Origin: a virus
DNA: 64,000 nt
IMG/VR virus record: IMGVR_UViG_3300042691_053485
Span: 32,001-96,000 of that record
Direction: 5' to 3' (one strand)
Made by a program: the position numbers and the translations under genes. This document shows positions 11,872 through 43,323 of the stretch, piece after piece. The notes beneath the pieces are model-generated. The model did no database searches. It was not told the origin of the DNA and saw nothing but the letters and a program-made list of their open reading frames with translations. Numbering within the stretch: position 1 is the stretch's first letter; each line of letters opens with the position of its first letter.

Positions 11872-12864
11872 ATGAATATAAAAAAGTTAAACGAAACATT
11901 CGACCGAATGAGCAAATCAGGCTTGTTCGGGAAACAAAGACCAATTCTATCCGAGAATTGGAGTCAAGAAGACATCCAAAAAATGAAGCAAATGCTTGCT
12001 TCAGGGGATATGGATAATATTAAGCTCGTTGAGCAGATGACTTCACCTCATCTTTTCAGAGATTTGGTGGATAGTGTTTATGGGGAGTTATTATCCTTTG
12101 CAAATAAAAAAGGCAGAGATGCTGGAGACATAACTTGGCTTTTTAGTAGGGGGGTATTGTATGCAAACAATACGCAACTAAGTACTGTTCCTGAAAACAT
12201 TGGAATTCTGAGTGGATTAGTGACATTGTTTTTGGAAGACAACAACCTGAGCAGCCTTCCGGAATCCATCGGCAACTTACATAATTTGGAAAGGTTAAAT
12301 TTGGGTAACAACAACCTGAGCAGCCTTCCGGAATCCATCGGCAACTTGCAGAATTTGCAACGGTTGGATTTATTCGGTAATAATCTGAGCAGCCTGCCGG
12401 AATCCATCGGCAACTTACATAATTTGGAAAGGTTAAATTTGGGTAACAACAACCTGAGCAGCCTTCCGGAATCCATTGGCAACTTGCAGAATTTGCAAGA
12501 GTTGGATTTGTCTAACAACAAGCTGAGTAACCTTACTAAAGGCTTCGAAAAATTGACAAAATTGACAAAACTCGGTTTAGCTCACAATAACCTCATTATA
12601 TTACCTGAAAGTATCAATAATTTAAGCCTATTAGAGATGTTAGATTTAACAGGAAATGGATTGCACACTCTTTCCGAAAGTATAGGAAATTTGAGTCAAT
12701 TAACAAATTTGAGTTTACGTAATAATAATCTGGAAACTCTCCCTCATAGCATCAGTAGCTTGAGTAGATTGAAGCGTTTATCGTTAGGGAGGAACAAATT
12801 TTCAAATACTGAAATTGAACGTATACAAACAATGCTTCCAAACTGTGGAATTTTTAATTTTTAA
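11872..12864 (+). CDS. LRR protein 1 (leader type A)
   Basis: 23-aa LPESIGNL repeats, LASGDMDNIKLV N-cap, LPNC C-cap; 138-bp internal duplication. Confidence 0.92.
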   Translation: MNIKKLNETFDRMSKSGLFGKQRPILSENWSQEDIQKMKQMLASGDMDNIKLVEQMTSPHLFRDLVDSVYGELLSFANKKGRDAGDITWLFSRGVLYANNTQLSTVPENIGILSGLVTLFLEDNNLSSLPESIGNLHNLERLNLGNNNLSSLPESIGNLQNLQRLDLFGNNLSSLPESIGNLHNLERLNLGNNNLSSLPESIGNLQNLQELDLSNNKLSNLTKGFEKLTKLTKLGLAHNNLIILPESINNLSLLEMLDLTGNGLHTLSESIGNLSQLTNLSLRNNNLETLPHSISSLSRLKRLSLGRNKFSNTEIERIQTMLPNCGIFNF

Positions 12865-12871
12865 TGTCATT

Positions 12872-13876
12872 ATGGATATAAAAAAAGTAAACGAAACATT
12901 CGACCGAATGAGCAAATCAGGCTTGTTCGGGAAAATACAAGAGGAGGTGTTTGATATAAAATCAAAGCTCACAAGCCTTCTAAAATCCGGAACACCGGAT
13001 AACATTGAACTTGCCATCATGGTAGCACAGGGTCAAGAGTTTGATATTGATGACTTGGTAGAAGAGCTTTTTGACTTGCAGTTTTGGATGGATAATCTTG
13101 ATGGTATTCCCCGGACAAGCAAGGTGGAAGCACTCCGTTTTTTGCTGTCAAAAACTATCATAAACCTTTACAGCAAAGGATTGTCGGAACTTTCTGAATC
13201 CATCGGCAACTTGCAGCATTTGCAAGAGTTGTATTTGTATAACAACAACCTGAGCAGCCTTCCGGAATCCATCGGCAACTTGCAGAATTTGAAAGTGTTG
13301 AATTTGGGTGAGAACAAGCTGAACAGCCTTCCGGAATCCATCGGCAACTTGCAGCATTTGCAAAGGTTGGGTTTGTATAACAACAACCTGAGCAATTTGC
13401 CGGAATCCATCGGCAACTTGCAGAATTTGCAAAGGTTAGGTTTGGGTAACAACAACCTGAGCAGCCTTCTGGAATCCTTCGGCAACTTGCAGAATTCGGA
13501 AACGTTGTCTTTGGCTAACAACAACCTGAGCAGCCTTCCTGAATCCATCGGCAACTTGCAGAATTTGCAAGAGTTGTATTTGTATAACAACAACCTGAGC
13601 AGCCTTCCGGAATCCATCGGCAACTTGCAGAATTTGAAAGGGTTGTATTTGCGTGGCAACAACCTGAGCAGCCTTCCGGAATCCATCGGTAACTTGCAAA
13701 ATTTGATAAGATTGGATTTATTTGATAACAACTTGAGCAGCTTGCCTGAATCTATCGGCAACTTGCAGAATTTGCAAGGGTTGAATTTGGGTAACAATAA
13801 TTTTCCTGAAGCTGAAAAGGAACGCATACAAAGAATGCTCCCAAACTGTAAAATATCTTTTAAACGAATACCATAA
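12872..13876 (+). CDS. LRR protein 2 (leader A plus body B), 9 canonical repeats
   Basis: Start reassigned to ATG 12872 by similarity to paralog starts; LKSGTPDNIELA; ends EKERIQRMLPNCKISF. Confidence 0.93.
   Translation: MDIKKVNETFDRMSKSGLFGKIQEEVFDIKSKLTSLLKSGTPDNIELAIMVAQGQEFDIDDLVEELFDLQFWMDNLDGIPRTSKVEALRFLLSKTIINLYSKGLSELSESIGNLQHLQELYLYNNNLSSLPESIGNLQNLKVLNLGENKLNSLPESIGNLQHLQRLGLYNNNLSNLPESIGNLQNLQRLGLGNNNLSSLLESFGNLQNSETLSLANNNLSSLPESIGNLQNLQELYLYNNNLSSLPESIGNLQNLKGLYLRGNNLSSLPESIGNLQNLIRLDLFDNNLSSLPESIGNLQNLQGLNLGNNNFPEAEKERIQRMLPNCKISFKRIP
13190..13800 (+). repeat. Tandem 69-bp LRR-coding repeats, GC-richer than the flanks
   Basis: Framework AACAACCTGAGCAGCCTTCCGGAATCCATCGGCAACTTGCAGAATTTG plus a variable block. 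Confidence 0.95.
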
Positions 13877-13878
13877 TA

Positions 13879-14766
13879 ATGAAAAACCCAAGACTTATCA
13901 TAACCGAAAAACAGGCAAAATTCGCCAAAAAAAACCTTTTTGAGGATGATAACCCCGAAGAAGTTCAAAAACTTCGTGAGATGTTATTCAGTGGTTCAAA
14001 GGAAACTATTAAAATTGCCCTTGAAGTTTCAGCTTCTTTGGGATATGATATTTCTTTGGATGTGTTCCCTGAATATATAGAACTTCAAAAGTTTTTCGTA
14101 ACACAAAAACCCGCAGGATTAGAGGATTCTTTCTATTCTATCCCAAATATAAAAAACTCACAAGCTCTTTCGGATTGGATTTTATCAATGTCCCAACGAC
14201 AATCTGCATATTTTGCAAATGTTAATAGTAATAATCTTCCACAGGGTGTTGCTATACTAGCGTCTTTGGTTGACTTAACATTGTCTGGCACATTTAGAGT
14301 CTTACCACCTGAATTAGGGAGTTTGCAGAATCTGCAAAGAATACATATTCGAAAGGGGATGTCGTTATCTGACATAAGTATCGTTTCACAACTTCAGAAT
14401 TTGCAGACCTTTGTTTGCAGTAACACTCGGACTTCAGACATAACACCCTTTTATAACACAAATATCAGAACGTTAAAGGTTGCAGATTCAAGAGTGAGTA
14501 AGACCGTGGTTATAAAAAATATGCCAAATTTACAAAGTTTACAATTAAACGGTAATATTGGTCTTAGGAATTTAGTTATTGAATCTGCCCCTAACCTAAT
14601 TGATATTTTCATCGAGGATTGCGACTTAGATGTACTTCCTGAAATATCTCACCTTCCAAACCTCCAACAAATTAATATACCTATTACAAGTCGAACTAAA
14701 CCACAAATTGCGGCTTATGTAGAAAAGAATAAAAACGTAAATGTTGTTATAAATCGATGGGCGTAA
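13879..14766 (+). CDS. LRR protein 3 (divergent repeats, ITE leader)
   Basis: MKNPRLIITEKQ; LFSGSKETIKIA; LPPELGSLQNL, LSDISIVSQLQNL. Confidence 0.85.
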   Translation: MKNPRLIITEKQAKFAKKNLFEDDNPEEVQKLREMLFSGSKETIKIALEVSASLGYDISLDVFPEYIELQKFFVTQKPAGLEDSFYSIPNIKNSQALSDWILSMSQRQSAYFANVNSNNLPQGVAILASLVDLTLSGTFRVLPPELGSLQNLQRIHIRKGMSLSDISIVSQLQNLQTFVCSNTRTSDITPFYNTNIRTLKVADSRVSKTVVIKNMPNLQSLQLNGNIGLRNLVIESAPNLIDIFIEDCDLDVLPEISHLPNLQQINIPITSRTKPQIAAYVEKNKNVNVVINRWA

Positions 14767-14768
14767 AA

Positions 14769-15632
14769 ATGGATATAAATAACCTTAACGAAATAATGAA
14801 GAAGCGTTTGGATGAAGGCTTCTTTGGGAACATACAAGAGGAAGATGAGTTTGATATAAAATCAAAGCTCACAGGTCTTCTAAAATCCGGAACACCGGAT
14901 AATATTGAACTTGCCATCATGATAGCACAGGGTCAGGAGTTTGATATTAATGACTTGGTAGAAGAGCTTTTTGATTTGAATTTTTGGATAGATAATCTCA
15001 AACGCATTCCCCAGACAAGCAAGTCCGAAGCTCTCAGTTTTTTGCTTGCACAAACTGCGATTGACCTTTCCAACAAAGGATTGCCAGCACTTCCTGAATC
15101 CATCGGCAACTTGCAGAATTTGGAATGGTTGAATTTAGATGGAAACAACTTGAGCAGTCTACCCGAATCCATTGGCAATTTGCATAATTTGAAATGGTTG
15201 GGTTTGAATGAGAATGACCTGCACAGACTTCCTGAATCCATCGGCAACTTACAGAATTTGGAATGGTTGGGTTTGTCTAACAGCAACCTGAGTAACCTGC
15301 CTGAATCAATCAGCAACTTGCAGAATTTAAAAAAGTTGTGGTTGGCTGGCAACAACTTGAATAGCCTGCCTGAAAGCATTGGAAATTTGCAGAATTTGGA
15401 AATGTTGGATTTAGGCCGCAATAACCTGAATAGCCTACCTGAAAGCATTGGAAATTTGCAGAATTTGGAAAAGTTGTGGTTGGAATCTAACAATTTAAGA
15501 AGTGTTCCTGAATCATTATACCTATTAAGGGGGTTGAACCGTTTAAACACAAGTGAAAACCCATTGCCTGAAGAAATTCAAGCCTCAATAAAGAAATTTT
15601 GCATTTACACCTCAATTGCACACGACCTATAG
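14769..15632 (+). CDS. LRR protein 4 (leader type B)
   Basis: MDINNLNEIMKKRLDEG; LKSGTPDNIELA; six canonical repeats, Trp-rich variable face. Confidence 0.93.
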   Translation: MDINNLNEIMKKRLDEGFFGNIQEEDEFDIKSKLTGLLKSGTPDNIELAIMIAQGQEFDINDLVEELFDLNFWIDNLKRIPQTSKSEALSFLLAQTAIDLSNKGLPALPESIGNLQNLEWLNLDGNNLSSLPESIGNLHNLKWLGLNENDLHRLPESIGNLQNLEWLGLSNSNLSNLPESISNLQNLKKLWLAGNNLNSLPESIGNLQNLEMLDLGRNNLNSLPESIGNLQNLEKLWLESNNLRSVPESLYLLRGLNRLNTSENPLPEEIQASIKKFCIYTSIAHDL

Positions 15633-16454
15633 ATGAAAACCTTTATAAGAAAAATATTAAGAGAACAAAGTGAACTTCCATTGGATTCTAAGTTTCAAAA
15701 GTGGTTTAATGGAAGTAAAATAACCACTGAATCAGGAACTCCTATGATATGTTATCATGGTACAAATGACCCTAACATAAAAGTTTTTGATTTGTCAAAA
15801 ATTGGGGCACATTCAGGCAATTATGGACATTATGGATATGGATTTTACTTTTCGGAAGATAAAGGGGAGGCAATGACTTATGGGAATGTAGTTTACGAAT
15901 GTTTCATAAGAATTATCAATCCATTCATTGGAAGTAAAGAGCAAATCATTGAACTTAAAAACGCAGGAGTCAGCGGAATCGATGATTTGGAGATTTTGTC
16001 AATAGATTTTCAAAGTTTCAAAAATTCACTAAGAGTAATTCCAATTTTATACAGTTTTGTTGAAGCATTCCAAAAGGAGGGTATGGAGGCAGCATGGGAT
16101 ATGTATCACCAATCCCAACATGATAATTTAGCTGACAAAGTGCAGATGGTTTCGGATATCCTTGAATTTACAACGTTTAATAAAAATGTTGATGGAGTTC
16201 CACAATATATTTTAGATAACATAGAGGCACTAGGAATTTCCCCTAAACTTAATAAGGGGCTGTCCTATGACCATCCATTACACTTTATAACAGATTTGGG
16301 TAGTAGAAGCAAAGAAATTACGGAGGTTATAAAGAAATTAGGGTATGACGGTGTCCATTATGGTTCAGAAATTGTTCCATTTTACCCCAACCAAATAAAG
16401 TCAATTCATAATGATGGGACTTGGAACTTACATGACAATAATATTTATTCTTAG
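15633..16454 (+). CDS. Second ART-PolyVal-like protein, with an internal insertion and an LRE leader
   Basis: WFNGSKI...CYHGT, GYGFYFS, LGYDGV, EIVPFYPNQIKSIHNDGTW...NNIYS, same ending as 9257..9826. Confidence 0.75.
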   Translation: MKTFIRKILREQSELPLDSKFQKWFNGSKITTESGTPMICYHGTNDPNIKVFDLSKIGAHSGNYGHYGYGFYFSEDKGEAMTYGNVVYECFIRIINPFIGSKEQIIELKNAGVSGIDDLEILSIDFQSFKNSLRVIPILYSFVEAFQKEGMEAAWDMYHQSQHDNLADKVQMVSDILEFTTFNKNVDGVPQYILDNIEALGISPKLNKGLSYDHPLHFITDLGSRSKEITEVIKKLGYDGVHYGSEIVPFYPNQIKSIHNDGTWNLHDNNIYS

Positions 16455-16544
16455 ATAGAATTCAATGAAAATAATTTGTCTCCTGAAAATGAGCAAGAGC
16501 TTATTAGATATGGTGAAGCGAATAACATTGATTGGAATACTTAA
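16455..16544 (+). pseudogene. Probable orphan LRR C-terminal cap remnant
   Basis: In frame after the ART stop: IEFNENNLSPENEQELIRYGEANNIDWNT*, similar to the C-caps of LRR4 and LRR8. Confidence 0.35.
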
Positions 16545-16574
16545 TGTTAAATGATATATTTATAAACAAAAGAA

Positions 16575-18904: not shown

Positions 18905-19389
18905 CCAATAAAGTCCAATAAATATTCTTTATCAGGATTATCATTTAGGACGCAGATAAATCCTAAATCACTATATTTTGTTGTGAAATCAGGCTCATGA
19001 GTTAGCTTACTGTGCATTTTGGGGATTTCCAAATCGTTTTGCATTCTGCCTTTGCCTGCATAAAAATGACCGTAGGTGTAAACAATTGCCTTCATAATCT
19101 TATATCCAAGACCTAAACCTTGCAAGCTGTTCGCAATATTAATATGTAATTGGTACAGAGTGTCCGCAATTACTTGGATGGAAACCGCAAGACCACTTTG
19201 GATGTTTACTCCACTAGGCAGGGGGGGGGTATCGATTGACAGCTGAATTGGAGACTCTTCATTTACTTGGTCAATAATTAGGTCTTCCCAAGAAATATTC
19301 CTAAGAAATTCTCTATCTTCATTAGAAATTTGAACTTCTTTTGAAATCGCTATTGCTTCATTTAGTAATTTTCGGATTATTGCCTTCAT
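18901..19389 (-). CDS. GNAT-like protein with an LNE leader
   Basis: Start reassigned to MKAIIRKLLNE (promoter motif at 19395-19402); acetyl-CoA motif LHINIANSLQGLGLGYKIM. Confidence 0.55.
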   Translation of the reverse strand: MKAIIRKLLNEAIAISKEVQISNEDREFLRNISWEDLIIDQVNEESPIQLSIDTPPLPSGVNIQSGLAVSIQVIADTLYQLHINIANSLQGLGLGYKIMKAIVYTYGHFYAGKGRMQNDLEIPKMHSKLTHEPDFTTKYSDLGFICVLNDNPDKEYLLDFIG

Positions 19390-20629: not shown

Positions 20630-20631
20630 AA

Positions 20632-30365: not shown

Positions 30366-31102
30366 TTCTTATTTACAGTTTTCCAACCCATTTTGATATA
30401 AGTTTCACAAAGCATATTCCTTAACTCAAAATGGTTTTTAGTTTGAAGATATGTTGCATTTTTATCATTTCCATGTTGAACCCCAAGAGCATGATTGTTG
30501 CCCCAAACTGAGTTATCATTTTTAGGATGTGGGGGGACAAATGTTTTGACATTTCCATATTTCTGAGCTAAATAACTAAATTGTATGTCTTCACCGTTAT
30601 CCCATGTAACGGGTTCTTCCATCCATAAGTATTTTAAGTGTTCTTTTTTAAAAAACCAACAATGCCCAACTAAGTCAACCTCTCTTACTTCAGGATTATT
30701 TGTACCATTCCAGCCTATTTTTTCGTGTGGCATATATGTATTACCCTTTAATAAAATTCCGCTGCATCCAAGTATACCATCTTTTTTCGATAATGTGTTA
30801 ATACAATTTTCAAACCATTTAGGTTCAGGAAAACAGTCATCATCAAAAATAGAGATGTATTTCGTTTGTGCTAGTAATCCCAACGCAAATCTTCCATGGA
30901 ATTTGAAATTATGGTTTGATTGAATTATTTTAACTGAAGGTGTTGTAATAGTTGGAAGCCCCTCCGTACCCTTATTACACCAAACCCAAATCTCCTTTGG
31001 CTTATATGTTTGCTTTTCAATAAAGTCAATTTGCTTTTGAATATTACTAGGTCTATTATAAGCATTTAATATGACCGTAAGGTCAATTATGTTGTTAGCC
31101 AT
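30362..31102 (-). CDS. Glycosyltransferase family 2
   Basis: VILNAYNRP, KYISIFDDDCFP..KWF, VDLVGHCWFF, NGEDIQFS. Confidence 0.85.
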   Translation of the reverse strand: MANNIIDLTVILNAYNRPSNIQKQIDFIEKQTYKPKEIWVWCNKGTEGLPTITTPSVKIIQSNHNFKFHGRFALGLLAQTKYISIFDDDCFPEPKWFENCINTLSKKDGILGCSGILLKGNTYMPHEKIGWNGTNNPEVREVDLVGHCWFFKKEHLKYLWMEEPVTWDNGEDIQFSYLAQKYGNVKTFVPPHPKNDNSVWGNNHALGVQHGNDKNATYLQTKNHFELRNMLCETYIKMGWKTVNKK

Positions 31103-33405
31103 TTGCATATTTTTTTAGAGTTTTCAGAATTGTCTTTTAAATAGTTCCTTGTGACACCAAGTCCCATGGTTTTATCCAATGAAGACCCAATATCAAGAAG
31201 GAATAGGTCTTTGCGGATATTATGAATTTTATAGATAGCTAATTTGGTAAATGTCCCCGCCATAAACAAAAAAACCGTGTTAGTGCTAACAGATTTTGAA
31301 TACTCAAGAATTTCAGAGATTTTATCATAGTCATTAAGCCAAGCATTTACCCCAATCCTAAATTCATTTATTACGTTTACATGTTTATGTAACTCTTTGG
31401 TGTCGGCATTTTTATGGCAGATAACCACTACATTTTTATCTCGAATGCTGTTTAGGAAATAGGATTTAAAATATTCATGATTACTGTTAACAAAAATATT
31501 AGCCCAGGTGAGGTTATAATCGGGCTGTGCCGCAACATTAAGCATTTTTTTTACACTATCCTTATTTACACAGCATGGGCAAGGAAGCCCAACAAAATAG
31601 TTAGCATCTTTATATTGAATTGATTCAACCATCTCTTGCTGAAGTTTCAAGTATCTTTTATCTTCAAGGTCAAACTTATGTTCGCCGTGGTGTTTATTAC
31701 TTAAATCTATAGGTTTTCCTTCAATTATCATCATCTCTCCATCGCCATACCTAACAATTGAAAAAGGATTGTTTTCTTTGAGTCTTTCAAAGAAAAAGTG
31801 TATCTCGGTATTGAAGATGTGACTCCTCTCAACATGTTTTACCACTCCAACGACAGGTGTTATTTTAATGTTTTTCGCCGTGTAGATGTTTGAGTTCGTT
31901 TTTGCATCAAACTTTGCTCGTTCAGTTTTCGAAACCGTTTGGCTTAAACTATTAGGATGCCGTCTATAATAGAAAAGTTGATTTTCAATAAAATATGTAC
32001 TCGTAAATTTGTCAAGCCTGATTAGGAGTTCTGAGTCTGACGAAAATTTAGAGTTCACATACCCTCCTGCCTTATCAAAAATGCTTTTCTTCATAAAAAG
32101 CACACCAACAGCCGGGAAAATCTTTTGTTGGACAATATTATTTATGCTACCCTCAAATGGAGTAAATTTAAATCTAATGAAATCATATTTTCCATCAATT
32201 TTCATAATTTCAGAAACCATTTGTGGTTTCATAATATCATCACTATCAAATCTAATAAGGTTTGGATATTTTGTCAATGGAACAAGGGTATTCATTACAA
32301 CATAAGTACCAAAATTTTTTTCCATCATAGCGATAGTAAGATTTCGATACTTATTTTTAATGGTTAAGAGTTTTTTAAATGTGTCAGTACAGCCATCAAC
32401 CCCAACAATTACTTCAAAATTGTTATTACCTTTAAAATATGTTTGAGATTCAATTGAATCCAAACATTGTTCGATATATGCTGAAGTTTTATATGCAGTT
32501 ATAAGAATACTAATGCCACCGCTTATTGTAATGCTTTGAGTGTCCGCAGTATCAATTACTTTTGATTCGAACTTCTTTTGAAATTGTTTTAAAATATTTT
32601 GATTCTCATTTAGCATAGGCTCTTTTTGTACACTTACATTTATAGCTTGTTGTTGGTCATTTCTCAATCCTAAACCTACACCACCGAGATGAATTAATGA
32701 TTCTTTTACAATTTGCTTTTTAGTTGTTGCAGCCCAAACTTTCTGAATAAATCGGAAATCACCACACTTCCATCCATCCCATCTGATACCCTTGGCGATT
32801 GATTGGTGAACCATAAAACAAGGTGCACCTATTCTTGCAATTTTTGGTGGAAGGCCAAGCTCTTGAATTGATGGCAACGTCATTCCATTGGGGTATCTCA
32901 TTTGCCAGAGGATAAGGTCTGTATTATTTTTGATTTGATTAACCATTTTCTGAACTGCGTTATTATCAGCTAAGTAATCATCATCATCTAAAAATAAAAT
33001 CCAACCATCTTCGACCTTGTTTATAAGAATATTGAAATACAAATTGAAAATAAATCTTTTACCTGTTTTAGGGTCAGGTATGTCAATCTCAGAAGAAACT
33101 TTATCCTTATCGATGAAAATATATTCAACACCCAATGATTTTACATACTCTTCATCTTTAACATCATCAATTGAAACAATATGTCGTATCTTCTTATATG
33201 TCTGATTCTTGACCGATTCTACACATCTCTTGAAGCTATTAGGTCGATTTGAAGTTCGTGTGAGAATATTAATTGTTGGGGTTGGTGTTTCAATCTTCTT
33301 GATAACAATTTTATTTTGCTCAACAACCTCTTGTTTTGGTTTAGAGTTTTGAATAACCGTACCTTTATTTCCTGTTCGAGTTGGAAGTCTCTTTATATGC
33401 CTCAT
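31087..33405 (-). CDS. Three-domain glycosyltransferase: GT2 + GT2 + GT-D (DUF1792-like)
   Basis: ILTRTSNRP/FLDDDD; LITAYK/RFDSDD; FSIVRYGDGE and LLDIGSSLD. Confidence 0.8.
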   Translation of the reverse strand: MRHIKRLPTRTGNKGTVIQNSKPKQEVVEQNKIVIKKIETPTPTINILTRTSNRPNSFKRCVESVKNQTYKKIRHIVSIDDVKDEEYVKSLGVEYIFIDKDKVSSEIDIPDPKTGKRFIFNLYFNILINKVEDGWILFLDDDDYLADNNAVQKMVNQIKNNTDLILWQMRYPNGMTLPSIQELGLPPKIARIGAPCFMVHQSIAKGIRWDGWKCGDFRFIQKVWAATTKKQIVKESLIHLGGVGLGLRNDQQQAINVSVQKEPMLNENQNILKQFQKKFESKVIDTADTQSITISGGISILITAYKTSAYIEQCLDSIESQTYFKGNNNFEVIVGVDGCTDTFKKLLTIKNKYRNLTIAMMEKNFGTYVVMNTLVPLTKYPNLIRFDSDDIMKPQMVSEIMKIDGKYDFIRFKFTPFEGSINNIVQQKIFPAVGVLFMKKSIFDKAGGYVNSKFSSDSELLIRLDKFTSTYFIENQLFYYRRHPNSLSQTVSKTERAKFDAKTNSNIYTAKNIKITPVVGVVKHVERSHIFNTEIHFFFERLKENNPFSIVRYGDGEMMIIEGKPIDLSNKHHGEHKFDLEDKRYLKLQQEMVESIQYKDANYFVGLPCPCCVNKDSVKKMLNVAAQPDYNLTWANIFVNSNHEYFKSYFLNSIRDKNVVVICHKNADTKELHKHVNVINEFRIGVNAWLNDYDKISEILEYSKSVSTNTVFLFMAGTFTKLAIYKIHNIRKDLFLLDIGSSLDKTMGLGVTRNYLKDNSENSKKICKWLTT

Positions 33406-34895
33406 CTAATAACCTGAATATATTTTTTCAACTTGTTAATGTTTTTTGATATTTTAGGAAGAACATGCTCATTCATATCCTTTACCTCTAATTCCACCTT
33501 CTTAGGATTTTTACTCCTTGTTGTTGACTCAAAGTGATAGCACATTGCACTCCCAACATAAATATTTTTATAGTTTCTAATGATACACTCTAAATTTAAA
33601 ATGACATCCTCCATACAGTCATAGGTTTTTTCTTCAAACCCTTTGATGCCATCAAAAAGCACCTTTCGAATCATCAAAAATGCCCCGGTACTTCCCAAAA
33701 CATCATTTTTAGTCTTAAATCCGTGATAGAAGGTTTGAATGCCGTGGTGTGAAAGCCCTATCCTTCCCTTATTTACATAACAAACAATCCCTGCATGCTG
33801 TATTTTATTGTTGAGATAGTGTAGTCTGCAACCAATAGTACCAGTGGTTTTTGGCGATTTTAAATATTCTGCAACCATAATTGAAATTGCATCATTCATC
33901 ATCAAAATGTCATCATTAACAAACAATAACAGCTCGGTATCGGACTCGACATGATTTTTTACAACATCATTATTTATTTTTGCAAAATGGTAAAAGTCAT
34001 ATTCAATCAACTTGTCAATCACTCTTTCACCATTGAGTTGCCTAAGTTTAGAAATAGTATCAGATTCGCTGCCAGTATCCGCGACATAAATTTTATAGTT
34101 CCTGTATTGAGTTGTAAATCGAATAGATTCAATACAACTCTTCAGAAGCTCAAAATTATCCTTTGAAGGGATTATTATCGCAAGTTTGGGTTCTCGGGGT
34201 AACTCAACAATTTTATTCTCTATATGTGGCTGGGGGAAGAGTTCTAAGGGTAATTTATTCTTATAAGTCTCCGCAAATTTTCGTCTGCTATATTCCCACT
34301 CCTTTGAAACATTTCCAATAGAGGCGTGTCGGACTTTAAAATCGCTGACAACACCAATTTTAACACCTCGTAAATGATTCTCAACACAAAAAGGAATGTC
34401 ATAAAAGTGGAATCCTTCAAATTCTTCAACAAAATTTGCCTTGATTCTATCCTTTTTGATTGCGATAAAAAGTCCATCTACTGCAAGAACTTCTTGAATT
34501 GTGCTTGGGATTGATTCAGAATATTCGCTGTCTTTCCAAGCCCCCTTTTCGTCCCGATGATGAACCGACCCTACCATCAGATGTCGGTCTTGCCACCACA
34601 TTCCTGTTTCGGGTAATCTTGTTGTACCCGCAACGCCAAGTATTCCATAATTACTTTTTTGGAAGGCATCAAAAATTATTTTATCCCAGCCTTTACTTAA
34701 AAAAACATCGTCATGGATGCAAACCAAAATATCATTTGAACTTTCTAAAATCGCTTGATTATAAGCTTTTGCAAGCGAAGTTTGCCCATTATTTTCAAAT
34801 GGGATTATTTCCACATTCTCCAATACACAAGTCCCACGTAAATATGTTAAATGTTCATTGTCAATCTTTCGCGTCGAATAAAAAACAGAAATCAT
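33402..34895 (-). CDS. Tandem GT2 glycosyltransferase (YhfT-like domain + GT2)
   Basis: CIHDDV, GVAG, VDGLF, FHFYD; second domain IIIPSKD, FVNDD, IQHAG, GAFLM. Confidence 0.85.
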   Translation of the reverse strand: MISVFYSTRKIDNEHLTYLRGTCVLENVEIIPFENNGQTSLAKAYNQAILESSNDILVCIHDDVFLSKGWDKIIFDAFQKSNYGILGVAGTTRLPETGMWWQDRHLMVGSVHHRDEKGAWKDSEYSESIPSTIQEVLAVDGLFIAIKKDRIKANFVEEFEGFHFYDIPFCVENHLRGVKIGVVSDFKVRHASIGNVSKEWEYSRRKFAETYKNKLPLELFPQPHIENKIVELPREPKLAIIIPSKDNFELLKSCIESIRFTTQYRNYKIYVADTGSESDTISKLRQLNGERVIDKLIEYDFYHFAKINNDVVKNHVESDTELLLFVNDDILMMNDAISIMVAEYLKSPKTTGTIGCRLHYLNNKIQHAGIVCYVNKGRIGLSHHGIQTFYHGFKTKNDVLGSTGAFLMIRKVLFDGIKGFEEKTYDCMEDVILNLECIIRNYKNIYVGSAMCYHFESTTRSKNPKKVELEVKDMNEHVLPKISKNINKLKKYIQVIR

Positions 34896-36008: not shown

Positions 36009-36890
36009 ATGACAGAAAATATAAAATTGCTTATTGAAAGTGGACTAAAACAAAATCTGTTATTAGCAGAGCAGCTTGCAATTAGTGAAGAACTTAATTT
36101 TAATAATCTATTGGAGGAAGTTTGGGATTTGGATTTTTGGATGACCAACTTAAATAAGCTTGACATTATAGTAAATTTACATAACCCTATCGATATTGGT
36201 AAGATTGACCTTGTAAATTTTCTATTTACACAGGAAGAATTAATTTTTCGTGGAGTCGAACTTTTAATGTTCTCCAAAAATATCAGAAATTTTACAAATT
36301 TACAACGTTTATATTTAAATTGTAACAAATTAATTAGCATCCCTAGCAGTATCGGTAACTTACAGGATTTACGTGTCTTAGATTTATCCAACAACAAGCT
36401 GAGCAGCCTTCCTGAATCCATCGGCAACTTGCAGAATTTGAAAGAGTTATATTTGTATGGCAACCACTTGAGTAGCCTGCCTGAATCGATTGGCAACTTG
36501 CATAATTTGGAAAGATTGTATTTAGATGGCAACAACCTAAACAGTTTGCCTGAATCCATCAGTAATTTACAGAATTTACAAGTCTTAGATTTATCCAACA
36601 ACAAGTTGAGCAGCCTGTCTGAATCAATTAATCACTTACAAAATTTGCGAGTATTATGCTTGAGTGAATCAAATGTTAATGCAATTTTAGATTGTATTGG
36701 TAATTTGCCAAATTTGGAGTCTCTAAGGTTATATCTTGAAAATCCTAGTTTGATATCTGGTGATATAACCAGTATAAAAAAATTAAAATATATACTATTT
36801 TATGACAGCAACATCCCTATCAAACATATTAAAGCCTTCAAAAGAAAGTTAAAAGGGGTGCTAATCCATGACTGTATTAATAGATGTTGA
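36009..36890 (+). CDS. LRR protein 5 (leaderless)
   Basis: Starts at the N-cap LIESGLKQNLLLA; contains canonical 69-bp repeats. Confidence 0.9.
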   Translation: MTENIKLLIESGLKQNLLLAEQLAISEELNFNNLLEEVWDLDFWMTNLNKLDIIVNLHNPIDIGKIDLVNFLFTQEELIFRGVELLMFSKNIRNFTNLQRLYLNCNKLISIPSSIGNLQDLRVLDLSNNKLSSLPESIGNLQNLKELYLYGNHLSSLPESIGNLHNLERLYLDGNNLNSLPESISNLQNLQVLDLSNNKLSSLSESINHLQNLRVLCLSESNVNAILDCIGNLPNLESLRLYLENPSLISGDITSIKKLKYILFYDSNIPIKHIKAFKRKLKGVLIHDCINRC

Positions 36891-36931
36891 TAGAAAATTT
36901 TCTTTTTTGATTAAGTAGAAATCTTTATTTG

Positions 36932-37561
36932 ATGGAAGCAATAAAAGGATTAATAGCAAGCGGACAAAAATCAAACCTCTTGTTAGCACAGCAATTCTGT
37001 ATCTGTGAAGGGTTAGATTTCGATGTTTTAGTAGAAGAAATTTGGGATTTAGATTTTTGGCGGACTCACTTATTTAAGCTCCGCAAAATTACTAATATCG
37101 AGGCTATAAATTTATTGTTTACCCAGAAAGAAATACACCTTTCTTTTAGGAAACTTTCAAAGGTTTCCAATAGTATTGGACTTTTAAATAATTTAAAGTT
37201 TTTGTTTTTGGATAATAATAAGTTGGTAGACATTCCAAAAAGTATTTCTAACTTGCAAAACTTACAAGTATTATTTTTAAATAATAATATTTTTGATACG
37301 ATACCTGAAAGTATTGCATATTTACAGGGTTTAAAAATATTAGGTTTAAGTGAAGCTAATGTTCAAGATATTTCAGATTGTATTACAAATTTACATAAAT
37401 TGGAGGATTTGAGATTATTTTATAATAAAATTCCTTATATTCCACAAAATATTGATACGTTGAGGTGTTTAAAATATTTATACTTTTCTGAAAACCTAAT
37501 TCCTATAGAGGAGCTTGAAGATTTGAAAAAACATCTACCTGAAACAAAAATTCTTTATTAG
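36932..37561 (+). CDS. LRR protein 6 (leaderless, AT-rich repeats)
   Basis: LIASGQKSNLLLA; IPKSISNLQNL, IPESIAYLQGL; ends LPETKILY. Confidence 0.88.
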   Translation: MEAIKGLIASGQKSNLLLAQQFCICEGLDFDVLVEEIWDLDFWRTHLFKLRKITNIEAINLLFTQKEIHLSFRKLSKVSNSIGLLNNLKFLFLDNNKLVDIPKSISNLQNLQVLFLNNNIFDTIPESIAYLQGLKILGLSEANVQDISDCITNLHKLEDLRLFYNKIPYIPQNIDTLRCLKYLYFSENLIPIEELEDLKKHLPETKILY

Positions 37562-37775
37562 ACAGTAAATGTCAATGTACCGATGTTTATGATAATTTTA
37601 AAAGTTATATGCTAGCTTACTGTAAGAGCTTTTTCAACTTTTTAAACTCTTTCCTTCCTTCGATTAGTGTCCTACAACTTGGATATACTCGTATCGTGTT
37701 TCCACCAAGATTATCAATCTCTTTTAGACTAATAAGCTTCTTTTGTTATTAAAACTTCAATTGAATTGCACTCAA

Positions 37776-38183
37776 TCAAGATGAGATTGAAATAAGATAG
37801 GACATGAAATTTCCACAATTTTCAGATTGAATTATTTTGTCAATTTCAGATTCTAAATTATTGATTGTTAATAGTGATGATTTTTGATTACTTACAAACT
37901 TTGCACTTAACTTTATTTGCCCATCATCTCCAACAATTTCAATATCAAATATTTCTGTGTCAAATGTTTTCTTGCTATTTAATATACGGTATATAAAATG
38001 AGCTTTTCCATGTCTCAATTCTTGCCGAATACGACCAATCAAAAGTCCATTAGAACCTTCAAAAAGACCCTTTGAGTATTCATTAAATATTCTTTTGATT
38101 TTATCCTTTGTATATTTTATTGATTTGATATTATGATTCATAAAGCTTATGTTATTGAATTTTAATGTAATCTGATGGAGCAA
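37776..38183 (-). CDS. Hypothetical, possibly decayed ORF
   Basis: 135-aa ORF with a weak start, next to the TnpB copy 2 right flank. Confidence 0.35.
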   Translation of the reverse strand: MLHQITLKFNNISFMNHNIKSIKYTKDKIKRIFNEYSKGLFEGSNGLLIGRIRQELRHGKAHFIYRILNSKKTFDTEIFDIEIVGDDGQIKLSAKFVSNQKSSLLTINNLESEIDKIIQSENCGNFMSYLISISS

Positions 38184-38276
38184 TAATCATATAGGGATTT
38201 TGAATTGATTCATTTTTATAATCCAATGTTCAAAACATATAGGCTAATCTTTTTCCAAAAAATCGATATAAGCATA

Positions 38277-39665
38277 CCGTTCTCAAAAACTTGCACAAAG
38301 TTGAACATGTCAAACATGTGCAGTTTTTGTTCCCAATTCATCGACAGGCTGAGTGCTGAAAAGCACCGAACTCCCATCTCCAAGGGCTGACACGGTGGAA
38401 CTCACCGCCAAATTTTTCAGGTTGATGCTTGCATTCAAATCCCTGTCAATTTCGAGGTGACAGAAATTGCAAGCATATTTTCTCTCAGAAAGTTTCAAAC
38501 TTTGTTTTTTGTTGCCACAACTTGAGCACAACTTGCTGCTGGCAAAGAAGGTGTTCGCCAAAATGACTTCTCCCCCATACCATGCTTTTTTGTACAACAG
38601 TTGTCTTTTGAACTCAAAAAATCCACCGTCAAGGATTGCTGATGCAAGCTTTTTGTTTTTCACCATGTTCTTGACCTTCAAATCCTCTATCACCACCACT
38701 TCAAAGTTTTTGGCGAGATAGGTTGTCAGTTTGTGAAGACAGTCCTTTCTTACATTTGCAACTGCGGCATGAATCTTTGCAAGCTTTTGAACAGATTGTT
38801 TGTAGTTGTTGCTTTGGCTTTCAGCTCCTCTAACAAATCTTCTGCTCACCTCTTTTTGTTGCCTTCTGAGTTTCTCCTTTGCCTTTTTGTAAGGCTTGAT
38901 ATTTTCGAATGTTTCTCCATTACTGAGTGTTGCCAAGGTTTTAACACCTAAGTCAACACCAACGACAAGTTCTTTCTTTTTTGTGATAGCCGGAATGTGT
39001 TCGACTCTGAATGAGATGAACCAGTGGTCAGCAGTCCTGCTGATTGTGCAGTTCTTTATGGACTTAACATCTAGTGTTTCGGATAATTTTACCCATCCAA
39101 TTTTTGGTAGTTTGACTTTATTCCCTTCTATCCTTATGCCATGTTTGTTACTATTTTCCAGATAGAATGAATCGCCTCTTCCTTTCTTCTTGTATCTTGG
39201 TAGTCCTTGCAGACCTGTTGAGGTCTTAACACCATTTACAATTTTATAGTGAAGAAGCTTGTATCCTGATTGCTTTTGCAGGCGGTGAAAGTTCTTGTAT
39301 GCTGTCTCAAGATTCCTCAGTGCTTGTTGTGGGGCGCATTTTGACACCTCATAATACCAAGCATGTTCCTTTTTCACCGTTGCTACAAGCCACTTATGAA
39401 GTGTGATGGCTGATGGGGTTGATTTCCCGTCTTTAAATAAGTCATTGCAATAGCTCAAAGCCTGATTGTAGGCATGACGAGCTGTGCCTGCATGTTTTGC
39501 AAACATCTGCTCCTGCAACCTTGTAGGCTCTAACCTTATCTTCAATGACTTGTATTGCATTTTCTGCTTATTTCAATCTGCTATAACCCGAAAAACTTAT
39601 ACACCATGTGGCAATTAATATACCAATGTTTAGAAATGTTACACTTTGTTCAAATATTTTTTAAC
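38277..39665 (-). mobile_element. Non-autonomous IS607/IS605-like element, tnpB only (copy 2, inverted)
   Basis: Same ends as copy 1; inserted just after the stop codon at 39671. Confidence 0.85.
38310..39560 (-). CDS. tnpB: TnpB RNA-guided endonuclease
   Basis: 416 aa, about 27 substitutions relative to copy 1 by manual count; catalytic D-E-D intact. Confidence 0.93.
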   Translation of the reverse strand: MQYKSLKIRLEPTRLQEQMFAKHAGTARHAYNQALSYCNDLFKDGKSTPSAITLHKWLVATVKKEHAWYYEVSKCAPQQALRNLETAYKNFHRLQKQSGYKLLHYKIVNGVKTSTGLQGLPRYKKKGRGDSFYLENSNKHGIRIEGNKVKLPKIGWVKLSETLDVKSIKNCTISRTADHWFISFRVEHIPAITKKKELVVGVDLGVKTLATLSNGETFENIKPYKKAKEKLRRQQKEVSRRFVRGAESQSNNYKQSVQKLAKIHAAVANVRKDCLHKLTTYLAKNFEVVVIEDLKVKNMVKNKKLASAILDGGFFEFKRQLLYKKAWYGGEVILANTFFASSKLCSSCGNKKQSLKLSERKYACNFCHLEIDRDLNASINLKNLAVSSTVSALGDGSSVLFSTQPVDELGTKTAHV

Positions 39666-39670
39666 TGCTG

Positions 39671-40219
39671 TCAGCCTTTTATTTTGTCTATTTCCTCATT
39701 TGAAACTTCTTCACTCAAATGAAGCTTCAAATTTTTCATTTGGGCTTCTGTTATCACAAGAACCTTTCGTTTTTCAAATGATTCATAGTTCACATTGTTT
39801 GTTGAGAGGTCATTTGAGGACATTGACTTATACAGTTTTGGTGTCCTCACTTTTGGAGTCTCTGAACCGTCTTTTGTATGGCTTCTTATGTAGGCATTGG
39901 ATTCGCCGGATTCCTTTTTTGCCTTTTTTGAGCTTTCGACTCGATTTCTTGCCGAACCCAATGTGGAATTTATCCAGCTTTCTAAGGAGCTTCCGCCATT
40001 CAAGAGATATAACGTCTTATTTCCTTTGTTTTTTTCCAAAATATGTTTGATGTTTTTCATATTTTGGTAGGATAACTTACCTACCGAAATGAGATTCTTC
40101 AAACGGACATATCCTTCCGAATGCTTGTCTCCTTTGTAGTTGTTAAGAATCTCTTGAAGATTTTTCAACAGTTCTTCGGGAAGGGAAAATGTTTTTCCTT
40201 GGAGGTTACTATTTGCCAT
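39671..40219 (-). CDS. Conserved-looking hypothetical large-phage protein
   Basis: RLKNL...LSYQNMKNIK...LNGG..L..WI; C-terminal VLVITEAQMK resembles the ITE leaders. Confidence 0.6.
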   Translation of the reverse strand: MANSNLQGKTFSLPEELLKNLQEILNNYKGDKHSEGYVRLKNLISVGKLSYQNMKNIKHILEKNKGNKTLYLLNGGSSLESWINSTLGSARNRVESSKKAKKESGESNAYIRSHTKDGSETPKVRTPKLYKSMSSNDLSTNNVNYESFEKRKVLVITEAQMKNLKLHLSEEVSNEEIDKIKG

Positions 40220-40976
40220 GTATTTCTCTTATTACTCTTTGTTCATTGTATAATAAACGACATCCACTTGGGATTAGTGTTTCAAGCGTTTTAGCTTCTT
40301 CAGTTGTTGCTTCGCCAATTTCAATGGTTCTCAGTGTAGGGGGTAGTTTTGGAAGGGATTTTTGTAAATCTTCTATTGGTATTTTAGAATCTCTTAAATC
40401 TATCCTATTCAGATTCATACCTTCAAGTGCTACCGGGAATTTCGTAAGCCTGACTCCTGTTATACTTAAAGTTTTAAGATTATGAAGTTGTTTAATTTTA
40501 GGTGAGATGGTTGTAATATCACTACAAGCCTTAATATACAGGTGCTTTAAAGATTCAATGGCAAAAATTTCATCAGGTATTTCCTTTAGATATAAGTTGA
40601 AAAGAGTTATATCTGAGATTTTTTTCAAGTGAAGTAGTTGGGCATAATCAATTTTTGGGGAGGTATAACTTATTTCTATTCTTGGGGAATTTAAAAGTCT
40701 CATAATAAAATCTACATAATCACCATTTCTATATGGCATCATAGGCGGTCGAACAACGTATGTTAATAGTTCTACAGGCTTAACTAGTTCTCTATAGTTA
40801 ATTCCCATCCCATCTGCAATCTCTATTGCAAGCCTTATGTTATCCTCTTGACCTGACAAAATCAATCGTTTGATATTTTCTTCAGGATTGAAGTCATCTT
40901 CATTTTCATTTATTAAAACTTCTTTGGCAGATTTTAACTGCTTTTCGGTTATTATGACCTTTATATTTTTGACCAT
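40209..40976 (-). CDS. LRR protein 7 (ITE leader; same type as LRR3)
   Basis: MVKNIKVIITEKQ; LILSGQEDNIRLA; IPDEIFAIESL. Confidence 0.85.
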   Translation of the reverse strand: MVKNIKVIITEKQLKSAKEVLINENEDDFNPEENIKRLILSGQEDNIRLAIEIADGMGINYRELVKPVELLTYVVRPPMMPYRNGDYVDFIMRLLNSPRIEISYTSPKIDYAQLLHLKKISDITLFNLYLKEIPDEIFAIESLKHLYIKACSDITTISPKIKQLHNLKTLSITGVRLTKFPVALEGMNLNRIDLRDSKIPIEDLQKSLPKLPPTLRTIEIGEATTEEAKTLETLIPSGCRLLYNEQRVIREIHGK

Positions 40977-41718
40977 TGTTTAAAATTATTTAAATCGCTT
41001 CTGATTTGTTTTTCTTCACAAAATTCAAATAGACGGTTTATCGTTTCTTGAGTTAAGGGGTTTCCCTTTATGAAAAGCCACTCAAGTGTTGATAGTTTGA
41101 AGAGTGATTCCGGCACGGATGTTAGCTTATTATTTTCAAAATCTAATGGGTTAAATTTTCCATTAAGTGAATATTTTCTGGAATTGACGTTAACTTATTT
41201 CTACCTAATCCCAATTGCTGTAAAGATTTTAATTTAACAATTGAAGTAGGTAGAGATACAATATCATTAGATTCTAATAATAGTGACTTTAAATCGTTTA
41301 AGTCGCCAATTGATTCCGGCAGTTTAGAAATTGCATTAGCACGCAAATCAATACTATTCAAGTGTGGTAAATATCCAATACTATTTGGGATTTTAGATAT
41401 TCCCTTGTCCGCAAGGTCTATTGTTTTAAATCCTTTTAGCTTATAAAGAATATCAGTGGTAGTTTTTGCAGTTATGTCATACATGAAAAAATGTTTTATC
41501 CAGAATTTTAATTCCCAGACTTCAGAAAATAGTGTGTCAAAATCAAAACCAAGTCCTTGGGCGACAGATTTTGCAAGTTCAATATTGTCCGGTGTTCCGG
41601 ATTTTAGAAGGCTAGTGAGCTTTGATTTTATATCAAACTCTTCCTCCTCTTGTATGTTCCAAAAGAAGCCCTCATCCAAACGCTTCTTCATTATTTTATT
41701 TATTTTGCTTATGTCCAT
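40961..41718 (-). pseudogene. LRR protein 8 (leader B), broken by a 1-nt frameshift near 41145
   Basis: ORF stops at ...NLTH*; adding one T restores HLDFENNKLTSVPESLFKLSTLEWLFIKGNPL...WSKI* ending at 40961. Confidence 0.8.
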
Positions 41719-41733
41719 TTTTTTAATTGATTT

Positions 41734-42519
41734 TTAAAATTCCACTTCACAATTTGGAAGCATAACCTTCAACCTCTTTATTACATTTGTGGGTATCGTA
41801 TTGCCGGACAAATACAACCCTTTCAAATTCTGCAAGTTGACGATAGATTCCGGAAGGCTGCTCAGGTTGTTGTTATACAAGCGCAACCATTCCAAATTCT
41901 GCAAGTTGCCGATGGACTCAGGAAGGCTGCTCAGGTTGTTGTCTTCCAAATACAACTCTTGCAAATTCTGCAAGTTGCCGATGGATTCCGGAAGGCTGCT
42001 CAGGTTGTTGTTAGTCAAGCGCAACGCTTGCAAATTCTGCAAGTTGCCGATGGATTCAGGAAGGCTGCTCAGCTTGTTGTTACCCAAATTCAACCCTTGC
42101 AAATTCTGCAAGTTGCCGATGGGTTCTGGAAGACTGCTCAGGCTGTTGTTATACAAGCGCAACACTTGCAAATTCTGCAAGTTGCCGATGGATTCAGAAA
42201 GTTCCGACAATCCTTTGCTGTAAAGGTTTATGCTAGTTTTTGACAGCAAAAAACGGAGTGCTTCCACCTTGCTTGTCCGGGGAATACCATCAAGATTATC
42301 CATCCAAAACTGCAAGTCAAAAAGCTCATTTAGCAAAGCATCAATGTCAAACTCCTGACCCTGTGCTACCATGATGGCAAGTTCAATATTATCAGGTATT
42401 CCGGATTTTAGAAGGCTGGTGAGCTTTGATTTTATATCAAACTCCTCCTCTTGTATATTCCCAAAGAAGCCTTCATTTAAACGCTTCTTCATTATTTTAT
42501 TTATTTTGCTTATGTCCAT
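41734..42519 (-). CDS. LRR protein 9 (leader B; body nearly identical to LRR2)
   Basis: Six canonical repeats; ends LSGNTIPTNVIKRLKVMLPNCEVEF. Confidence 0.93.
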   Translation of the reverse strand: MDISKINKIMKKRLNEGFFGNIQEEEFDIKSKLTSLLKSGIPDNIELAIMVAQGQEFDIDALLNELFDLQFWMDNLDGIPRTSKVEALRFLLSKTSINLYSKGLSELSESIGNLQNLQVLRLYNNSLSSLPEPIGNLQNLQGLNLGNNKLSSLPESIGNLQNLQALRLTNNNLSSLPESIGNLQNLQELYLEDNNLSSLPESIGNLQNLEWLRLYNNNLSSLPESIVNLQNLKGLYLSGNTIPTNVIKRLKVMLPNCEVEF

Positions 42520-42534
42520 TTTTTTTATGTATTT

Positions 42535-43323
42535 TTAAAATTCCACTTCACAATTTGGAAGTATAGCCTTCAACCTCTTTATTACATTTGTTGGTATCGT
42601 ATTGCCGGACAAATTCAACTCTTCCAAATTCTGCAAGTTGCCGATGGATTCCGGAAGGTTGCTCAGCTTGTTGTTACCCAAATTCAACAATTCCAAATTC
42701 TGCAAGTTGACGATGGATTCAGGAAGGCTGCTCAATAGGTTATTAAACAAATACAACCCTTGCAAATTCTGCAAGTTGCCAATGGATTCAGGCAGGCTGC
42801 TCAGCTTGTTGCCACTCAAATCCAACTCTTTCAAATTCTGCAAGTTACCGATAGATTCCGGAAGATGGCTTAGGCTATTGTGATTCAAATTCACAGATTT
42901 CAAATTCTGCAAGTTTCCAATCGATTCAGGCAGGCTGCTCAGGTTGTTGTTATCCAAATACAACACTTTCAGCTTCTGCAAGTTGCCGATAGATTCAGGC
43001 AGTGCTGACAATCCTTTGCGGGAAAGGTCTATGATAGCTCTTGACAACAAAAAACGGAGAGCTTCAGATTTGCTTGTTTGGGGAATGTTATCAAGATTTT
43101 TCATCCAAAACTTCAAGTTATAAATCTCTTCTGCCAAGGCATCAATATCAAAATCTTGCCCTTGAGCTATCATGAACGCAAGCTCAATGTTATCAGGTGT
43201 TCCGGATTTTAGAAGGCTGGTGAGTTTTGACTTTATATCAAACTCATCTTCCTCTTGTATGTTCCCAAAGAAGCCTTCATTCAAACGCTTCTTCATTATT
43301 TCGTTAAGTTTATTTAAATTCAT
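42535..43323 (-). CDS. LRR protein 10 (leader B; body like LRR4, C-cap like LRR9)
   Basis: IPQTSKSEAL shared with LRR4; LSGNTIPTNVIKRLK..LPNCEVEF shared with LRR9. Confidence 0.93.
   Translation of the reverse strand: MNLNKLNEIMKKRLNEGFFGNIQEEDEFDIKSKLTSLLKSGTPDNIELAFMIAQGQDFDIDALAEEIYNLKFWMKNLDNIPQTSKSEALRFLLSRAIIDLSRKGLSALPESIGNLQKLKVLYLDNNNLSSLPESIGNLQNLKSVNLNHNSLSHLPESIGNLQNLKELDLSGNKLSSLPESIGNLQNLQGLYLFNNLLSSLPESIVNLQNLELLNLGNNKLSNLPESIGNLQNLEELNLSGNTIPTNVIKRLKAILPNCEVEF

Follow-up and report, generated by a model that had tools for sequence, protein, structure and literature searches.

The window analysed here, 64,000 nucleotides at bases 32001-96000 of one linear, 184,534-bp IMG/VR virus record (IMGVR_UViG_3300042691_053485), carries ten genes for leucine-rich repeat (LRR) proteins. 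At least four further LRR genes lie elsewhere in the record, which brings the family to at least 14, including genes cut by both contig ends. The phage is a T4-like myovirus, and CheckV puts the completeness of the record at 68%. The original prediction, made from the sequence alone, held that codons in the repeats bear a pattern resembling the targeted mutagenesis of diversity-generating retroelements (DGRs), and it offered as causes either strong diversifying selection spread by gene conversion or a site-directed diversifier encoded elsewhere. Our analysis favors a more ordinary account: the repeat units very probably make up a family of LRR binder modules that is young and recombines, under relaxed or mildly positive selection at the concave-face residues and with no targeted mutator. 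The LRR genes of the window are as follows (window coordinates; GC3 is the G+C content of third codon positions).

11872..12864, plus strand: LRR gene 1, 330 aa; canonical 69-nt units at 12217-12561, then more diverged units; Pfam LRR_14 (1.4e-40) and LRR_8
12815..13876, plus strand, probable ATG at 12872: LRR gene 2; eight canonical units at 13220-13771; Pfam LRR_14 (1.5e-53)
13879..14766, plus strand: divergent LRR paralogue, 295 aa, without canonical units; Pfam LRR_4 (2.6e-10); GC3 0.11-0.30, typical of the genome
14757..15632, plus strand, ATG at 14769: LRR gene 4; six units at 15120-15533; Pfam LRR_14 (1.1e-34)
36009..36890, plus strand: LRR gene, 293 aa; four canonical-like units at 36369-36644; Pfam LRR_14 (1.4e-26)
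36929..37561, plus strand: divergent LRR gene, 210 aa; Pfam LRR_14 (2e-16); GC3 of the LRR region 0.18
40209..40976, minus strand: divergent LRR paralogue, 255 aa, counterpart of 13879-14766; weak Pfam LRR matches (2e-5 to 5e-4)
41143..41718, minus strand: LRR gene, 191 aa, with diverged units and the N-terminal module of the family; N-terminal synonymous divergence (dS) 1.1-1.6 to other paralogues
41734..42519, minus strand: LRR gene 9, 261 aa; five canonical units at 41827-42171; Pfam LRR_14 (1.1e-29); protein modelled
42535..43323, minus strand: LRR gene 10, 262 aa; five units at 42628-42972

The genes with canonical units match Pfam LRR_14 (1e-27 to 1e-54) and LRR_8, and their products have the tandem LxxLxLxxNxL repeats of an LRR solenoid. 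All unit-like sequence lies in intact genes; we found no broken gene fragments between the LRR genes. Outside the window, LRR genes occupy positions 3520-4515 and 6558-7346 of the record, and both of its ends fall inside LRR genes (1-410 and 183928-184534). The assembly therefore probably broke at these repeats, and the missing ~32% of the genome may hold more members of the family.

The 69-nucleotide unit, its codon pattern and its fold

The canonical unit is 69 nt long, and we number its codons 0-22: L-[Q/K/E]-x-L-x-L-x-x-N-N-L-S-S-L-P-E-S-I-G-N-L-Q-N. Retiling the five genes on which the original prediction drew (11872-12864, 12815-13876, 14757-15632, 41734-42519 and 42535-43323) gave 29 units, and the whole record has 46 canonical units. 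These are 70-97% identical to their consensus, and nine of them share an identical 48-nt core.

The codon pattern that had been described is present. Codon 2, which precedes the LxL motif, ends in G in 26 of the 29 units of the five genes and in 39 of 46 across the record, and it encodes the same 11 amino acids that were first counted (R, E, W, V, G, T, K, M, A, S and L). T is the last letter of codon 4, inside LxL, in 24/29 and 41/46 units, respectively. Across the record codon 6 reads NNT in 39/46 units and codon 7 reads NNC in 36/46. Codon 1 has the form NAA, with C as its first letter in 23 units, A in 12, G in 11 and T in none. Even a single amino acid follows the place of its codon: for glycine, codon 2 has GGG, codons 4 and 6 have GGT and codon 7 has GGC. 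Expressed as entropy, the variable codons carry 0.5-1.8 bits at positions 1-2 (mean 1.37, with codon 1 nearly invariant at its second letter) and 0.3-1.0 bits at position 3. The genome has an overall GC content of ~35% and a GC3 of 0.30 over 96 non-LRR open reading frames (ORFs), and the phage uses GAG for 29% of Glu, GGG for 18% of Gly and GTG for 13% of Val. Against this codon usage the NNG/NNT/NNC pattern is far beyond chance.

In an AlphaFold2 model of the 41734-42519 protein (predicted local distance difference test score, pLDDT, 89), a helical N-terminal module precedes an LRR solenoid, whose beta strands recur every 23 residues and fall on unit codons 2-4. The variable codons thus lie in or just after the beta strand, which places the variable residues on the concave face of the solenoid.

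Rates of change at variable and neutral sites

Whether the variable letters are hypermutated can be judged by comparing them with neutral sites of the same units. Pairwise differences per site are 0.547 at positions 1-2 of the variable codons and 0.241 at their third positions, against 0.070 and 0.285 for the same positions of the framework. The third positions of variable codons follow those of the framework in all similarity strata except the most diverged pairs. Because pairs of units are not independent, we also counted events by Fitch parsimony on FastTree trees of the 43 unique units; the trees used either all sites, the non-variable sites alone or the variable segment alone. Over these trees, each site at positions 1-2 of the variable codons changed 8.6-14.2 times and each third position of those codons 4.0-4.2 times. 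In the framework, third positions changed 6.0-8.4 times where four-fold degenerate and 4.4-5.5 times where two-fold degenerate, and positions 1-2 changed 1.3-1.6 times.

The event ratio of variable positions 1-2 to four-fold synonymous sites is thus about 1-2.4, and the apparently frozen third letters behave as ordinary two-fold third positions. It is mostly the tight constraint on the scaffold that makes the contrast so striking. By the Nei-Gojobori method (NG86) the framework has a dS of 0.64 and a ratio of non-synonymous to synonymous divergence (dN/dS) of 0.12, and dN/dS at the variable codons is 1.9 (codon 2), 1.4 (codon 4), 2.45 (codon 6) and 0.63 (codon 7). With independent synonymous sites, and pairs stratified by one block, the corresponding ratio of proportions (pN/pS) is 1.2-1.9 in five of six classes and 0.9 in the most diverged. 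These values fit exposed codons that range from relaxed constraint to about twice the neutral rate. They are consistent with neutral to mildly positive selection; beyond mere relaxation, some degree of positive selection for novel binding faces is probable. The proposal of strong diversifying selection spread by gene conversion was therefore broadly right in invoking selection and recombination, but "strong" overstates rates that fit a range from relaxed to about twofold neutral.

Why the third letter should stay put while its neighbors change can be understood from the residues that these positions accept. Among 477 units of distant homologues, position 1 is E, Q or K (23, 21 and 19%), position 4 favors N, Y and D (22, 16 and 16%) and position 7 favors N, D, G and Y (18, 12, 11 and 10%), and at position 2 E and K are preferred over D and N about fourfold. 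In the genetic code E, Q and K are NAR and N, D, Y and H are NAY, so exchanges inside a preferred set are first-letter changes. More generally, the tolerated sets (E/Q/K; N/D/Y/H; S/G/D/R/N/Y) would interconvert by changes of the first or second letter, and a non-synonymous change of the third letter would lead to a disfavored residue or a stop. Non-synonymous third-base differences are indeed depleted among variable codons that share positions 1-2 (pN3/pS3 = 0.17). No special process has to be invoked for the fixed third letter, which is the founder base decaying at the ordinary synonymous rate. A mutation-selection model that combines the residue preferences of the distant homologues with a star tree, calibration on four-fold sites and a threefold non-synonymous boost reproduces retention at positions 1-2 and does so roughly across all three codon positions.

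The composition of the units points to the same history. The consensus unit has a GC3 of 0.74, compared with 0.30 for the genome, and is built of codons that are rare in this phage, such as CTG (5% of Leu), AGC, CCG, TCC and GGC. Canonical LRR regions range from 0.48 to 0.73 in GC3, the N-terminal modules of the main paralogue group from 0.40 to 0.47, and the LRR regions of three diverged paralogues from 0.09 to 0.18. GGG, GCG and CGG occur in the variable codons because the founder unit was GC3-rich and recently amplified, and its composition has not yet drifted to that of the genome. The non-repeat N-terminal domains of the paralogues differ by a dS of 0.17-0.76 (dN/dS 0.2-0.7), so the family as a whole must be young, and there is no need to postulate extra homogenisation of the framework. 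LRR relatives in IMG/VR (L001-L010), which are 34-60% identical and have older, diverged units, serve for contrast only. In three such older arrays on other viral contigs (L002, L004 and L005) the third letters at the same codons are as variable as the first two (0.58-0.66 per site), which identifies the frozen third base as a trait of young arrays.

In the most probable scenario, one founder 69-nt unit with unusually G/C-rich third letters was amplified. Tandem duplication, unequal crossing-over and exchange between paralogues then spread it within and among the paralogous genes, of which there are at least 14. Strong purifying selection has since kept the scaffold codons, and all third positions, those of the variable codons included, have drifted at the ordinary synonymous rate, so that ~85% of them retain the founder base. 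On the beta-strand face, the five exposed codons (the x of LxxLxLxxN) have meanwhile changed freely at positions 1-2, at ~1-2.5 times the neutral rate.

The same synonymous sites bear on a different history, in which the 21-nt variable segments are ancient alleles under balancing selection and gene conversion homogenises only the framework around them. Synonymous sites of Leu codons in the variable segment differ in ~22% of comparisons (pS 0.33) even where the 45-nt block of codons 8-22 is identical, as this history would have it, and one short patch swaps framework haplotypes between strain variants. However, the synonymous diversity of the variable segment equals that of the framework, with third-position entropies of 0.3-1.0 bits in both, and third positions have changed to a like extent in the variable codons and at the two-fold sites of the framework (4.0-4.2 and 4.4-5.5 per site). 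Since the non-repeat N-terminal domains are equally shallow in dS, nothing calls for extra homogenisation of the framework, and we regard ancient variable segments as very improbable.

Strain variants, recombination and the retroelement test

An exact search for the pattern of the 48-nt core gave no match in IMG/VR and, among metagenome contigs, returned four short ones (L016-L019). Judged by their sequences, these contigs and the close homologues P0002 (on a 63.7-kb contig) and P0005 (on a 17.5-kb contig), the latter two compared as proteins, are strain variants. Their differences come in blocks. L016 is the gene at 11872-12864 minus exactly 138 nt, that is, two units or one copy of a higher-order repeat (96% identical, window 12239-12593) within that gene; otherwise it has 1-2 point differences in 1269 nt. 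L019 matches units 2-6 of a paralogue with no change in a variable codon, its N-terminal part and first unit being replaced, and a 40-nt patch in it holds five changes that turn ESFGNLQH into ESIGNLQN. L018 is one unit shorter than L019; a candidate 51-nt conversion patch in L018 was rejected, being the start of the one-unit deletion plus a block difference, with no exact donor in the record. L017 is a mosaic, joined inside the core, of the 3' end of 12815-13876 and a paralogue ~41 kb away from that gene. Units 13634 and 13703 of 12815-13876 are identical to two units (genome positions 4144 and 4213) of that same paralogue. Finally, the protein P0004, from another contig, is an exact chimera of the N-terminal part of 12815-13876 and the C-terminal part of 41734-42519, with its junction in the core. 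The differences among strain variants, which include T>A, C>A and synonymous changes, are neither adenine-biased nor limited to variable codons.

The two genes that contribute to P0004 lie in clusters of opposite orientation, 11872-15632 (plus strand) and 40209-43323 (minus strand), each with the order TnpB, small ORF, LRR genes. The two TnpB copies, 90.7% identical over 1392 nt and likewise inverted, are:

9936..11186, plus strand (element 9829-11210): TnpB (IS605 OrfB) copy 1, adjoining the left LRR cluster; Pfam OrfB_IS605 (5.5e-25)
38310..39560, minus strand (element 38277-39668): TnpB copy 2, adjoining the right LRR cluster

These inverted paralogous blocks flank a segment of ~27 kb that contains glycosyltransferase and other genes. 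Two of them, at 31087-34895 on the minus strand between the LRR clusters, encode large glycosyltransferases of several domains, one of 772 aa (GT2 plus a GT-D-like domain) and one of 497 aa (GT2 family). A crossover that inverts the ~27-kb segment would yield a chimera like P0004, as could an assembly error.

An arrangement of this kind raises the possibility of a dedicated programme that is not a retroelement: copy-choice or site-specific recombination between the two inverted clusters during infection, similar to that of variable lymphocyte receptors (VLRs), or a targeted editing enzyme encoded elsewhere. The identical core of nine units could guide exchange between the TnpB-adjoining clusters, the junction of P0004 falls within that core, unit number varies between strain variants, and in our model positions 1-2 are boosted and non-synonymous third-position changes are not. 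Yet everything seen is the effect that general homologous recombination has on repeats, and T4-like phages recombine very actively. Near the clusters we found no recombinase, signal sequences or silent cassette store. Event rates close to neutral also argue against a dedicated programme, and the chimeras on which it leans are possibly artefacts of assembly; we think such a programme quite improbable.

A classical DGR would work differently: a reverse transcriptase, its gene lying in the missing third of the genome, would copy a template repeat of AAG/AAT/AAT/AAC codons and overwrite units with adenine-mutagenised cDNA. The resemblance is genuine, since NNG/NNT/NNC codons look like variable-region codons derived from AAY or AAG template codons. 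Variable positions are also poor in C, with A frequent at the second position of codons 4 and 7, and the same rarity of C and frequency of A have been reported for Bacteroides DGR variable regions (bioRxiv 2024.11.15.621889). The proposed search of the full genome for a reverse transcriptase, Avd and a non-coding unit could be run on the 184.5-kb record and found none of them. There were 0 RVT_1 (PF00078) candidates at E<=1 in the 184,534 bp, the window included, and no match to Avd (PF05635) at E<=1 in this 68%-complete record. A reverse transcriptase was likewise not found in the partial relatives G001 and G002 or in the complete, distant record G003. An nhmmer profile of the 46 units, run on both strands, placed all matches at E<1e-3 in LRR ORFs (137-362 aa) or in the LRR gene truncated by the 3' end of the contig. 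To our knowledge, moreover, DGRs target C-type-lectin or immunoglobulin-like variable regions at the C-terminal end of a gene, unlike the 50-60 tandem units over 14 genes seen here.

As had been observed at the outset, framework adenines are mostly untouched in the units: conservation is 96.3% over the 13 columns where the framework has adenine at codon positions 1-2, and the AA of codon 8 (AAC) is intact in 46/46 units. Codon 1 varies at its first letter only, although it reads NAA, and synonymous and non-adenine differences occur throughout the units. DGRs alter ~50% of the available template adenines per event (bioRxiv 2024.11.15.621889). With half of the adenines hit each time, intact frameworks across at least five units per gene could not survive, so the sequence itself rules out a classical DGR regardless of what is encoded in the missing third of the genome, and we leave this explanation only a vanishing chance. 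Together with the block-wise strain variants and a rate of only ~1-2.4 times neutral at the variable positions, these results give no support to a site-directed or DGR-like diversifier. A true site-directed mutator encoded in the missing third strikes us as scarcely credible, and as far less likely than the idea, discussed below, that the LRR proteins are injected binders.

Several observations weigh against our account of young, recombining modules. The record is only 68% complete, and some of the mosaic contigs may be chimeras of short-read assembly. Pairs of units with identical frameworks still differ at 36% of variable positions 1-2, in part through ascertainment; as a proof of hypermutation these pairs were weakened by the independent synonymous sites and then by the tree-based event counts. 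Observed third-base retention is 0.78-0.96, compared with 0.70-0.85 in the boosted model, and the un-boosted model (0.76-0.90) fits better. A modest asymmetry thus seems to be left over in the model, with the boost apparently acting mainly on positions 1-2; this would be expected if selection favored radical replacements, which is not proven. In addition, none of the residues encoded by NNY (I, Y, F, D, N, H and C) occurs at codon 2; in distant homologues they account for ~32% of that position. By a rough, uncomputed estimate about three such residues would be expected at codon 2 under neutrality, so that zero is of marginal significance.

Possible packaging and relation to known systems

The assignment to T4-like myoviruses draws on virion and replication genes; besides the two genes listed here, the phage carries a tail sheath and a family B DNA polymerase gene.

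4164-4934, plus strand: gp21-type prohead protease; Peptidase_S77 (1.2e-21), phrog_207
6186-8012: gp23-type major capsid protein; Pfam Gp23 (1.6e-70)

The DNA polymerase ORF (47373-51770, minus strand, 1465 aa) matches Pfam polymerase and exonuclease models over short stretches only (1e-10), and it may contain large insertions or be strongly diverged. A megablast search with 10 kb of the window gave no match among public phage genomes. In the relative G001 the major capsid protein is 77% identical, yet that record has a single LRR homologue of 35% identity and is unhelpful for comparing orthologues.

The LRR proteins have charged N-termini that, judged by eye, are unlike signal peptides, and we infer that they are cytoplasmic or injected binders. 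In T4 the prohead protease removes leaders that end in (L/I)-x-E, and the internal proteins IPI-III and Alt are targeted to the capsid. The N-terminal module of the LRR paralogues has L-N/D-E at residues 14-16 and an invariant FGxIQE at residues 19-24, a part of the model with low confidence. At the level of motifs, T4-type capsid targeting thus has both of its elements here, a gp21-type protease and N-termini on the LRR proteins that fit (L/I)-x-E, and the module may act as a leader for capsid targeting. The left LRR cluster is directly followed by a further gene:

15633-16454, plus strand: protein with an ART-PolyVal ADP-ribosyltransferase domain (2.6e-17)

Its N-terminus, MKTFIRKILRE, fits the T4-type L-x-E leader; T4 Alt is a packaged, injected ADP-ribosyltransferase. 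The motifs suggest that the LRR proteins could be packaged in the head and injected. By extension we speculate that the at least 14 LRR genes could be a capsid-packaged arsenal of binders, co-injected with the DNA, whose faces phage recombination renews by swapping units at the 48-nt cores, also between the inverted clusters. We consider this unlikely as matters stand; if true, it would be a virus-side counterpart of the immune-receptor repertoires of hosts.

A close parallel to the LRR family of the phage is bacterial. The tandem LRR locus of Flavobacterium psychrophilum has up to 19 paralogous genes, each with 2-14 near-identical units of ~22 residues (Altae-Tran et al. 2020, PMC10392669). 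It shares with the phage genes hypervariability at a few positions of one face, an N-terminal module that is conserved, and strain differences in the number and order of units that point to recombination without a diversifying enzyme (PMC10392669). Its proteins, however, are bacterial and surface-exported, with a signal peptide and a type 9 secretion signal, whereas ours belong to a T4-like phage and bear no signal peptide recognised by eye; and the phage genes, unlike those of F. psychrophilum, are scattered in several clusters, two of them inverted beside TnpB, without broken gene fragments between them.

A second parallel comes from the repeats of high internal conservation in fungal NOD-like receptors (NLRs), Podospora HET-D/E/R and the nwd family, where the repeats of one gene and those of its paralogues are ~85% identical (Dyrka et al. 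2014, PMC4986451). There too repeat number is polymorphic, repeats are exchanged among family members without a diversifying enzyme, and 3-5 codons per repeat, on the binding surface, are variable or positively selected, much as the phage units have few variable surface codons. The fungal repeats are WD40, ANK or TPR repeats of eukaryotic immune receptors, among which no LRRs were found (PMC4986451), and positive selection was tested there with site models, compared with NG86, parsimony counts and a simple model here.

In fold, the best Foldseek matches of the modelled protein among solved structures are Leptospira LRR proteins, SHOC2 and Rsu1 (E 1e-15 to 1e-13, 37-49% identity). Leptospira LIC11098, LIC12234 and LSS01692 and the SHOC2/Rsu1 class have the same 23-residue unit, LxxLxLxxNxLxxLPxxIGxLxx, but are cellular proteins with diverged repeats that lack the helical N-terminal module and the near-identical DNA units of the phage. 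Phage LRR families of unknown function are already listed in PHROGs. The biology that remains, a T4-like jumbo phage with a large recombining family of LRR binders, is of moderate interest.

With DGRs, as known from Mtd of Bordetella phage BPP-1 and from Bacteroides, the LRR genes have in common that they are phage-borne and encode binding proteins, that the third letter is kept (NNC or NNT from AAY) and that C is rare. They differ in having no reverse transcriptase, Avd or template found in the record, in adenines that are not specifically variable, in near-neutral rates, and in spreading ~60 units of an LRR fold over 14 genes rather than confining change to one C-terminal variable region of a C-type lectin. 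The codon pattern mimics the DGR signature. Variable first and second letters beside a frozen third will appear in any repeat array that is young and has a permissive surface, so that the pattern by itself is no proof of targeted mutagenesis. What separates the two is a count of events at the variable letters against four-fold sites of the same repeats, together with the question of whether framework adenines vary.

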